Below are positions 1-324 of a DNA stretch of 324 bases, piece after piece. Location of the stretch: assembly GCF_003334815.1 (NCBI RefSeq), contig NZ_QOWO01000136.1; one strand, given 5' to 3'. The position numbers were made by a program, and so were the translations under genes. Positions within the stretch are counted from its first letter, which is position 1. The number at the start of each line of letters is the position of its first letter. The stretch comes from Escherichia coli (lineage in GTDB: Bacteria > Pseudomonadota > Gammaproteobacteria > Enterobacterales > Enterobacteriaceae). Below the pieces are notes generated by a model. It ran no database searches and was not told the DNA's origin. It was given only the letters and a program-made list of their open reading frames with translations.

Positions 1-37
1 CCGTAGGCCGGATAAGGCGTTCACGCCGCATCCGGCA
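1..37 (-). repeat. REP/PU element, Z-type (probably Z2), reverse orientation; copy 1
   Basis: ccgtaggccggataaggcgttcacgccgcatccggca is the reverse complement of the Z-type PU consensus as I remember it (gccggatgcggcgtgaacgccttatccggcctacgg). Imperfect hairpin: arms 7-19 and 24-36, 13 bp with 2 internal mismatches, loop ttca 20-23. GTAG motif at 3-6. Confidence 0.8.
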
Positions 38-50
38 GTCGTGCGCAGAT

Positions 51-86
51 GCCTGATGCGACGCTAACGCGTCTTATCAGGCCTAC
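51..86 (+). repeat. REP/PU element, Y-type, forward orientation; copy 1
   Basis: gcctgatgcgacgctaacgcgtcttatcaggcctac matches the classical E. coli REP (Y) consensus. Imperfect hairpin: arms 51-64 and 69-82, 14 bp with 2 mismatches (one is G·U in RNA), loop 65-68. Ends in CTAC (83-86), the complement of GTAG. Confidence 0.85.
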
Positions 87-101
87 AAATTCCCGCGCCA
101 T

Positions 102-138
102 CCGTAGGCCGGATAAGGCGTTTACGCCGCATCCGGCA
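102..138 (-). repeat. REP/PU element, Z-type, reverse orientation; copy 2 (loop variant ttta)
   Basis: Same as 1-37 except C>T at 123, which lies in the hairpin loop. Confidence 0.8.
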
Positions 139-151
139 GTCGTGCGCAGAT

Positions 152-187
152 GCCTGATGCGACGCTAACGCGTCTTATCAGGCCTAC
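152..187 (+). repeat. REP/PU element, Y-type, forward orientation; copy 2
   Basis: Identical to 51-86. Confidence 0.85.
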
Positions 188-202
188 AAATTCTCGCGCC
201 AC

Positions 203-239
203 CCGTAGGCCGGATAAGGCGTTCACGCCGCATCCGGCA
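203..239 (-). repeat. REP/PU element, Z-type, reverse orientation; copy 3
   Basis: Identical to 1-37. Confidence 0.8.
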
Positions 240-252
240 GTCGTGCGCAGAT

Positions 253-288
253 GCCTGATGCGACGCTAACGCGTCTTATCAGGCCTAC
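253..288 (+). repeat. REP/PU element, Y-type, forward orientation; copy 3
   Basis: Identical to 51-86. Confidence 0.85.
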
Positions 289-303
289 AAATTCCCGCGC
301 CAT

Positions 304-324
304 CCGTAGGCCGGATAAGGCGTT
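304..324 (-). repeat. REP/PU element, Z-type, reverse orientation; copy 4, truncated by the window edge
   Basis: ccgtaggccggataaggcgtt matches the first 21 nt of the Z-type PU in copies 1-3; the window ends before the loop and second arm. Confidence 0.7.

Follow-up and report, generated by a model that had tools for sequence, protein, structure and literature searches.

What is a 101-bp sequence that recurs almost unchanged over the full length of a short stretch of Escherichia coli DNA, and is there more to it than the trouble it may give an assembler? The window, by which we mean the whole 324-nt stretch that was analyzed, forms a single tandem array (1-324) with a period of 101, 3.2 copies, 97% matches and no indels (Tandem Repeats Finder; score 627). 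A repeat finder reports 100% identity between 1-122 and 203-324, and 98% identity of 102-223 to both of these segments. When the units are cut at GTAG, the first and the third are identical, while the second differs from them by three mismatches at unit positions 20, 91 and 99 (97.0% identity). The 101-bp repeat is far above chance expectation, and the figures given in the earlier note (a 101-bp unit, 97-100% identity) are exact. What that note missed is the make-up of the unit, each of which consists of two imperfect palindromes in inverted orientation. Their identity as a REP hairpin pair (BIME-2) adds a biological side to what had been treated as a technical nuisance.

With a shorter seed, the unit splits into two different imperfect palindromes of opposite orientation, with arms of 14 nt that are 86% complementary (Table 1). 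The sequence GTAGGCC is found on the plus strand at 3, 104, 205 and 306 and on the minus strand at 86, 187 and 288. Single palindromes are predicted to fold with -11.3 to -12.9 kcal/mol as DNA (z -4.2 to -5.4) and with about -21 kcal/mol as RNA on both strands (z -4.6 to -6.6); the hairpin of the y REP at 3-37, for instance, reaches -12.2 kcal/mol as DNA (z = -4.4) and -20.9 kcal/mol as RNA. Folding the whole window against shuffled controls yields z = -9.1 for the plus strand and z = -11.6 for the minus strand, and positions 3-19 pair over a long range with 70-86, both as an inverted repeat and in the fold. In the full-length fold, distant units join in long-range helices instead of local hairpins. 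The RNA of the minus strand, i.e., the mhp sense strand, is the more stable one (-199.8 vs. -170.9 kcal/mol for the plus strand). The leading CC at 1-2 implies that at least one further unit lies upstream of the window; strains whose array begins with the window's leading unit match from position 3 only. The variant B unit in the middle of the window is also found in MG1655.

Table 1. Elements of the tandem array in the 324-nt window.
Element	Positions	Strand	Composition	Basis
End of preceding tail-to-tail linker	1..2	+	last 2 nt (CC); cf. 102-103 and 303-304	
BIME-2 unit 1, variant C	3..103	+	y REP, 12-nt head-to-head linker, z2 iREP, 17-nt tail-to-tail linker	
BIME-2 unit 2, variant B	104..204	+	T at unit position 20; linker AAATTCTCGCGCCACCC	
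BIME-2 unit 3, variant C	205..305	+	same as unit 1	
Start of fourth unit	306..324	+	first 19 nt of y REP, cut by window end	
y-type REP	3..37; 104-138; 205-239	+	GTAG, then imperfect palindrome GCCGGATAAGGCGT / ACGCCGCATCCGGC	inverted repeats
Head-to-head linker	38..49; 139-150; 240-251	+	GTCGTGCGCAGA, 12 nt	
z2-type iREP (inverted)	50..86; 151-187; 252-288	+	GCCTGATGCGACGC..GCGTCTTATCAGGC, then CTAC	inverted repeats
Tail-to-tail linker	87..103; 188-204 (variant); 289-305	+	AAATTCCCGCGCCATCC, 17 nt	
TGCC/TGAT motif (slash marks the cut)	50; 151; 252	+		motif definition PMC3333891
GGCC/TACA motif	80; 181; 282	+		motif definition PMC3333891

The window matches every one of the 5,426 complete E. 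coli genomes (5,426/5,426; megablast) at a median of at least 31 places each, and these many places in every genome mark it as part of a dispersed repeat family. REPs of E. coli are imperfect palindromes that bear a conserved GTAG on their 5' side and come in the types y, z1 and z2, and BIME-2 elements are inverse pairs of y and z2 with a short linker that occur in multiple tandem copies, the number of which varies between strains (Ton-Hoang et al., PMC3333891); their linker motif classes are named S and s/l/r (PMC3333891). In keeping with a REP, the window holds imperfect palindromes of 20-40 nt with an internal mismatch and GTAG/CTAC feet, extragenic and in high copy number, and, in keeping with BIME-2, y and z2 alternate around a short head-to-head linker in conserved tandem copies of strain-variable number. 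Layout, GTAG feet, intergenic tandem copies, variable number and lack of an IHF site are the same as in BIME-2, and no substantive difference was found. The window is an ordinary member of this known class. BIME-2 of E. coli, composed of y and z2 REPs (palindromic units), was reportedly described by Gilson in 1991 and by Bachellier in 1994, 1997 and 1999. Two other assignments were rejected. BIME-1 would come with a long IHF-binding L linker, which is missing here, and the IHF consensus WATCAANNNNTTR was not found in the window. In the case of a CRISPR array, spacers would be unique, whereas the linkers repeat near-identically and two palindromes alternate in opposite orientation.

Two related concepts help to place the array. 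REPINs are REP doublets said to be mobilised by REP-associated tyrosine transposases, as Bertels and Rainey (2011) and Nunvar (2010) reportedly found. The window shares with REPIN/RAYT systems the inverted REP pair that forms a larger hairpin, the recognition features of TnpA_REP and the CT cleavage motifs. REPINs, however, are typically dispersed singletons, whereas the mhp array is an in situ tandem amplification, and no RAYT gene was found in or beside the mhp locus. TGCC/TGAT and GGCC/TAC are reported cleavage sites of TnpA_REP (PMC3333891), and every unit of the window carries, as far as sequence can tell, the features of a TnpA_REP substrate (5' GTAG, stem mismatch, C/T motifs at the iREP). 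REPs are regarded as non-autonomous elements tied to a domesticated transposase (PMC3333891). With bacterial minisatellites (VNTRs), the array has in common a polymorphism in steps of one unit, a possible use as a typing marker and a short-read assembly problem. Compared to a generic VNTR, the mhp unit is a pair from a genome-wide hairpin family with gyrase and TnpA_REP as protein partners.

Across the 5,426 complete E. coli genomes, all of the window's best matches (99.7%) fall between mhpE and mhpT. The minus strand of the window carries both genes, such that the order of transcription is mhpE, array, mhpT. The mhpE gene is the last one of the 3-hydroxyphenylpropionate catabolic operon (mhpABCDFE), and mhpT encodes its transporter. 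Taken together, with a probability of roughly 90% for the joint reading, the window comes from the interior of the BIME-2 array between mhpE and mhpT, including the mechanism of variation that we infer below and a function proposed by analogy. The mhpE-mhpT flanks are present in 4,925 of the 5,426 complete genomes and missing from about 500. In nine places they reside on plasmids, presumably F-prime-type plasmids with the lac-mhp region. No sigma-70-like promoter was found on either strand of the window or of the K-12 array, nor between the array and mhpT, and an intrinsic terminator (a G+C-rich hairpin followed by a T run) was found neither in the window nor within the K-12 array.

The K-12 reference has no annotated gene over the array. 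In several RefSeq genomes, the NCBI pipeline (PGAP) places a "hypothetical protein" or a partial pseudogene with a frameshift over it. Such calls would speak for a protein-coding gene, but each of the six frames of the window contains four to six stops, no frame stays open for more than 50 codons, a period of 101 bp is not divisible by three and the K-12 reference is without a gene at this place. The stop-codon count refutes a coding reading, which can be discounted almost entirely; with stops in all six frames, the RefSeq protein calls look spurious, and annotation pipelines should mask the array.

How the number of units differs between strains was assessed with a query that consists of flanks only (two 1-kb pieces, one from the mhpT side and one from the mhpE side, joined together), for which 59 finished genomes were sampled evenly down the ranking. 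The inserted length in this sample equals 40-46 bp plus n x 101 bp. Next to a terminal REP, 32 genomes have no full unit (n = 0), eight have one, three have two, two have three and 14 have four. Separate matches revealed five and seven full units at the mhp locus, and three finished genomes contain 7.4, 5.4 and 4.4 copies there with an array identity of 96-97%. All genomes with a flank identity of 97.4-98.3% have n = 0, and nearly all of those with identical flanks have n = 4. More precisely, among the 60 best flank matches, in which the flanks are 100% identical to K-12, n = 4 occurs in 57, n = 3 in two and n = 2 in one; MG1655 (twice), C600, J53 and DH5alpha (twice) have n = 4, as does each independent assembly of a K-12 laboratory strain among the matches listed. 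The unit count is inherited with the lineage, and the polymorphism is genuine and heritable, and it is assembled reproducibly among finished genomes. The suspicion that copy number may be polymorphic between strains is borne out at the mhp locus, with 0 to at least seven units in exact 101-bp steps. It is correct but not new for BIME-2, the strain-variable copy number of which is already given in a statement in PMC3333891 that cites Bachellier 1997. The count can serve as a lineage-linked marker. A 60-nt probe centered on the 17-nt tail-to-tail linker has a match in 2,292 genomes, a number that is not the fraction with at least one full mhp unit because the probe also matches REP325, the array in the yjdM-yjdN spacer. 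Two single-REP alleles were seen, one that matches the terminal REP of long arrays exactly (F, 42-bp insert) and one with an A-like left half (G, 40-bp insert). The data suggest that longer arrays collapsed to give at least some of the single-REP alleles.

When each distinct unit is given a letter, the alleles read as follows: A-B-C-E-F in MG1655, D-B-C-E-F in 63-2, A-B-C-D-B-C-E-F in DLI.5a (7.4 copies), I-E-F in WP2-S18, A-C-C-C-E-F in XL10-Gold, and C-B-C plus a partial unit in the window. The array of DLI.5a is the K-12-type left part A-B-C joined to a complete 63-2-type array (D-B-C-E-F), as if from one unequal in-register exchange between two different alleles, and that of WP2-S18 looks like an internal deletion. 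The units at the ends, such as A, are degenerate, and the internal ones are 97-100% identical with intact hairpins. These patterns of unit order would fit recombination or slippage between misaligned units. Variation would then arise by in-register misalignment of near-identical units, either through unequal recombination with a sister or an incoming allele or through replication slippage or template switching to which the hairpins contribute. A separate candidate is the REP-associated tyrosine transposase, which might cut and rejoin the iREPs at their CT sites. Slippage and recombination had been foreseen in the earlier note; with the unit recognized as a REP pair, template switching promoted by the hairpins and the transposase come into view as further candidates. 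Since every unit contains the TnpA_REP motifs, amplification by the transposase, as modelled by Ton-Hoang et al. (PMC3333891), is conceivable.

Near-identical units that are shorter than a read had also been put forward as an assembly hazard, and whether this holds differs from allele to allele. With the flanks included, the longest internal stretch that recurs exactly measures 80 bp in both MG1655 and 63-2, 126 bp in S30, 134 bp in ET846, 320 bp in DLI.5a and 339 bp in XL10-Gold; for the window, whose edges limit the value, it measures 122 bp or more. With a maximum repeat of 80 bp, the common K-12-type allele is resolvable with ordinary 150-bp reads, and its finished assemblies are reproducible (n = 4 in 57 of the 60 cases above). 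Alleles with adjacent identical units are not resolvable by such reads. The warning therefore stands for alleles like that of the window, DLI.5a and XL10-Gold but not for the K-12 type: it is generic, allele-dependent and reasonable. Unit counts from short-read assemblies cannot be trusted where identical units adjoin. This raises the question of whether the window itself, while a real repeat, shows a wrong number or order of units, being collapsed, expanded or homogenised by an assembler or polisher. Its exact repeat of at least 122 bp is near or above typical k-mer and short-read lengths, and its order C-B-C has no 100% match in the 5,426 complete E. coli genomes (best match 99.7%). On the other hand, the window is a single base away from the real orders D-B-C (63-2) and C-D-B-C (DLI.5a), the counts follow lineage, with n = 4 in nearly all genomes with identical flanks, and a missing exact match is weak evidence when the collection comprises complete E. 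coli genomes only. We consider such an artefact improbable. The array of XL10-Gold deviates from A-B-C-E-F of other K-12 strains in the manner that an artefact would give, which lends the idea some support. XL10-Gold is the sole K-12 derivative with a deviant array; it has one unit more than the other K-12 laboratory strains seen, and variant unit B is replaced by the consensus unit C. This array is either a real allele of different lac-mhp ancestry or a homogenising artefact of assembly or polishing. A comparison of MG1655 with XL10-Gold as a test for assembly errors within one clone was dropped, as the arrays differ in both composition and number of units; given that the lac-mhp region of XL10-Gold may be of different ancestry, it offers no clean comparison with MG1655.

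A close paralogue of the mhp array that has been studied by experiment is REP325. The curated Rfam family RF02564 (naRNA4) is built on this BIME-2 array. On the plus strand of the window it scores 85.0 bits at 6-83, 87.2 at 107-184 and 85.0 at 208-285, compared to a gathering score of 59.5; on the minus strand it still reaches 62-63 bits, also above the gathering score. The better-scoring plus strand is antisense to mhpE and mhpT. The y REP of REP325 is identical to that of mhp unit B, its z2 REP differs from the mhp one at two loop bases only, and two out of 17 positions of the tail-to-tail linker are unlike the mhp linker. Likewise, REP325 sits between two co-directional genes and is length-polymorphic, with spacers of 657 bp (MG1655), 459 bp (a lab isolate) and 258 bp (an O157:H7 strain). 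Differences concern the head-to-head linker (12 nt, GTCGTGCGCAGA, in mhp vs. 11 nt, ACGGTGCCGAC, in REP325), the period (101 vs. 100 bp) and above all the orientation. Along the sense strand of REP325, the y REP leads, while the mhp array is inverted relative to transcription. As a result of this opposite orientation, the sense-strand spacer between hairpins is G-rich in mhp (C:G 2:8) rather than C-rich as in REP325 (9:1). Both arrays may derive from one founder unit, a copy of which would have been placed in opposite orientation at a locus 3.9 Mb away. If true, whole modules of y, z2 and linker, and not single REPs, would be the mobile entity.

The three full-length RF02564 matches above threshold, together with the passing minus strand, could also mean that each unit encodes a nucleoid-associated small RNA of the naRNA4 type, which would act with HU to link DNA cruciforms and compact the chromosome. 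For REP325 RNA, Qian et al. (2015) reported binding to HU and condensation of the nucleoid, with the secondary structure and not the sequence being what counts (PMC4550694). At the mhp locus, however, the better strand is antisense to the only known transcription, a promoter-like site was found on neither strand, and the array is missing in about half of the sampled strains. Moreover, a 2026 preprint observed no measurable nucleoid compaction or REP-REP contacts by REP325/naRNA4, and it includes the senior author of the original naRNA4 report (10.64898/2026.03.23.713779). We regard small RNA genes as a highly improbable explanation of the window, and return to the BIME-2 reading.

For the BIME-2 array between mhpE and mhpT, a function is best sought in what is established for its relatives. 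REP325 stabilises the upstream yjdM mRNA and lowers read-through into yjdN about 8-fold, partly via Rho, and tandem gene pairs with a REP show upstream-biased expression genome-wide (bioRxiv 10.64898/2026.03.23.713779). According to an older view summarised by Dar and Sorek (PMC6061677), transcribed REPs resist 3'-5' exonucleases. At the DNA level, BIME-2 elements show an enrichment of gyrase cleavage sites that is stronger for y REPs than for z2 REPs and independent of transcription (Sutormin et al., PMC6379681). By analogy, transcription of the mhp genes would make the array fold into a row of stable hairpins, which would shield the upstream mhpE mRNA, i.e., the 3' end of the mhpABCDFE message, against 3'-5' exonucleases and lower the read-through into mhpT; in the DNA, the y REPs would be preferred sites of gyrase binding and cleavage. 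The array most likely protects the 3' end of the message, and it probably also attenuates read-through into mhpT and acts as a target of gyrase. The 90 bp upstream of mhpT contain no promoter-like site, which is consistent with mhpT depending on read-through. A literature search, BIME tables included, yielded no usable data on expression (mhpT transcription among it), gyrase or RNA decay for the mhp array itself, for which reason its function rests on analogy; a paper on DGF-298 lists genes inside a deletion only. The analogy has a limit in the inverted orientation and the G-rich spacer, due to which the Rho-dependent part of the REP325 attenuation may not apply at mhp. A further limit is that 32 of the 59 sampled genomes make do with a single REP, so that the tandem array is dispensable and its size may be largely neutral.

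The array may also be neutral selfish or satellite DNA that is resized by slippage or a transposase and is under no selection for an effect on mhp expression or DNA topology. The many single-REP genomes speak for this view, counts of 0 to 7 coexist within the species, the end units (unit A) are degenerate, and the non-autonomous nature of REPs with their domesticated transposase (PMC3333891) points the same way. Against this, the internal units are kept 97-100% identical with their hairpins intact, the equivalent array REP325 has measurable local effects on both neighbor genes, and the expression of REP-containing tandem gene pairs is biased genome-wide. A purely neutral array is a possibility that we hold to be rather unlikely, although the copy number could be neutral even if the hairpins act locally. 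A bolder extension of the proposed local hairpin effect is that 0 to at least seven hairpin pairs might act as a heritable, stepwise dial of mhpT relative to the catabolic enzymes. The route would be through hairpins only and not through Rho, because the array is inverted with respect to REP325 and has no C-rich spacer on the sense strand. This idea is speculative, and we would sooner bet against it.

Finally, the array adjoins lac, and the mhp locus has already been named in the literature as a REP array: Lin et al. describe it as a REP cluster near lac that takes part in 20% of their sequenced rearrangement junctions. A role as rearrangement hotspot is likely, and as a documented junction hotspot for lac amplification, the array matters for how rearrangements in this region are read. 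The practical consequences are modest and the current understanding of REP/BIME elements is unchanged. The natural series of 0-7 units at one locus is a ready-made test of the recent idea of REPs as "tunable 3'UTR dials".
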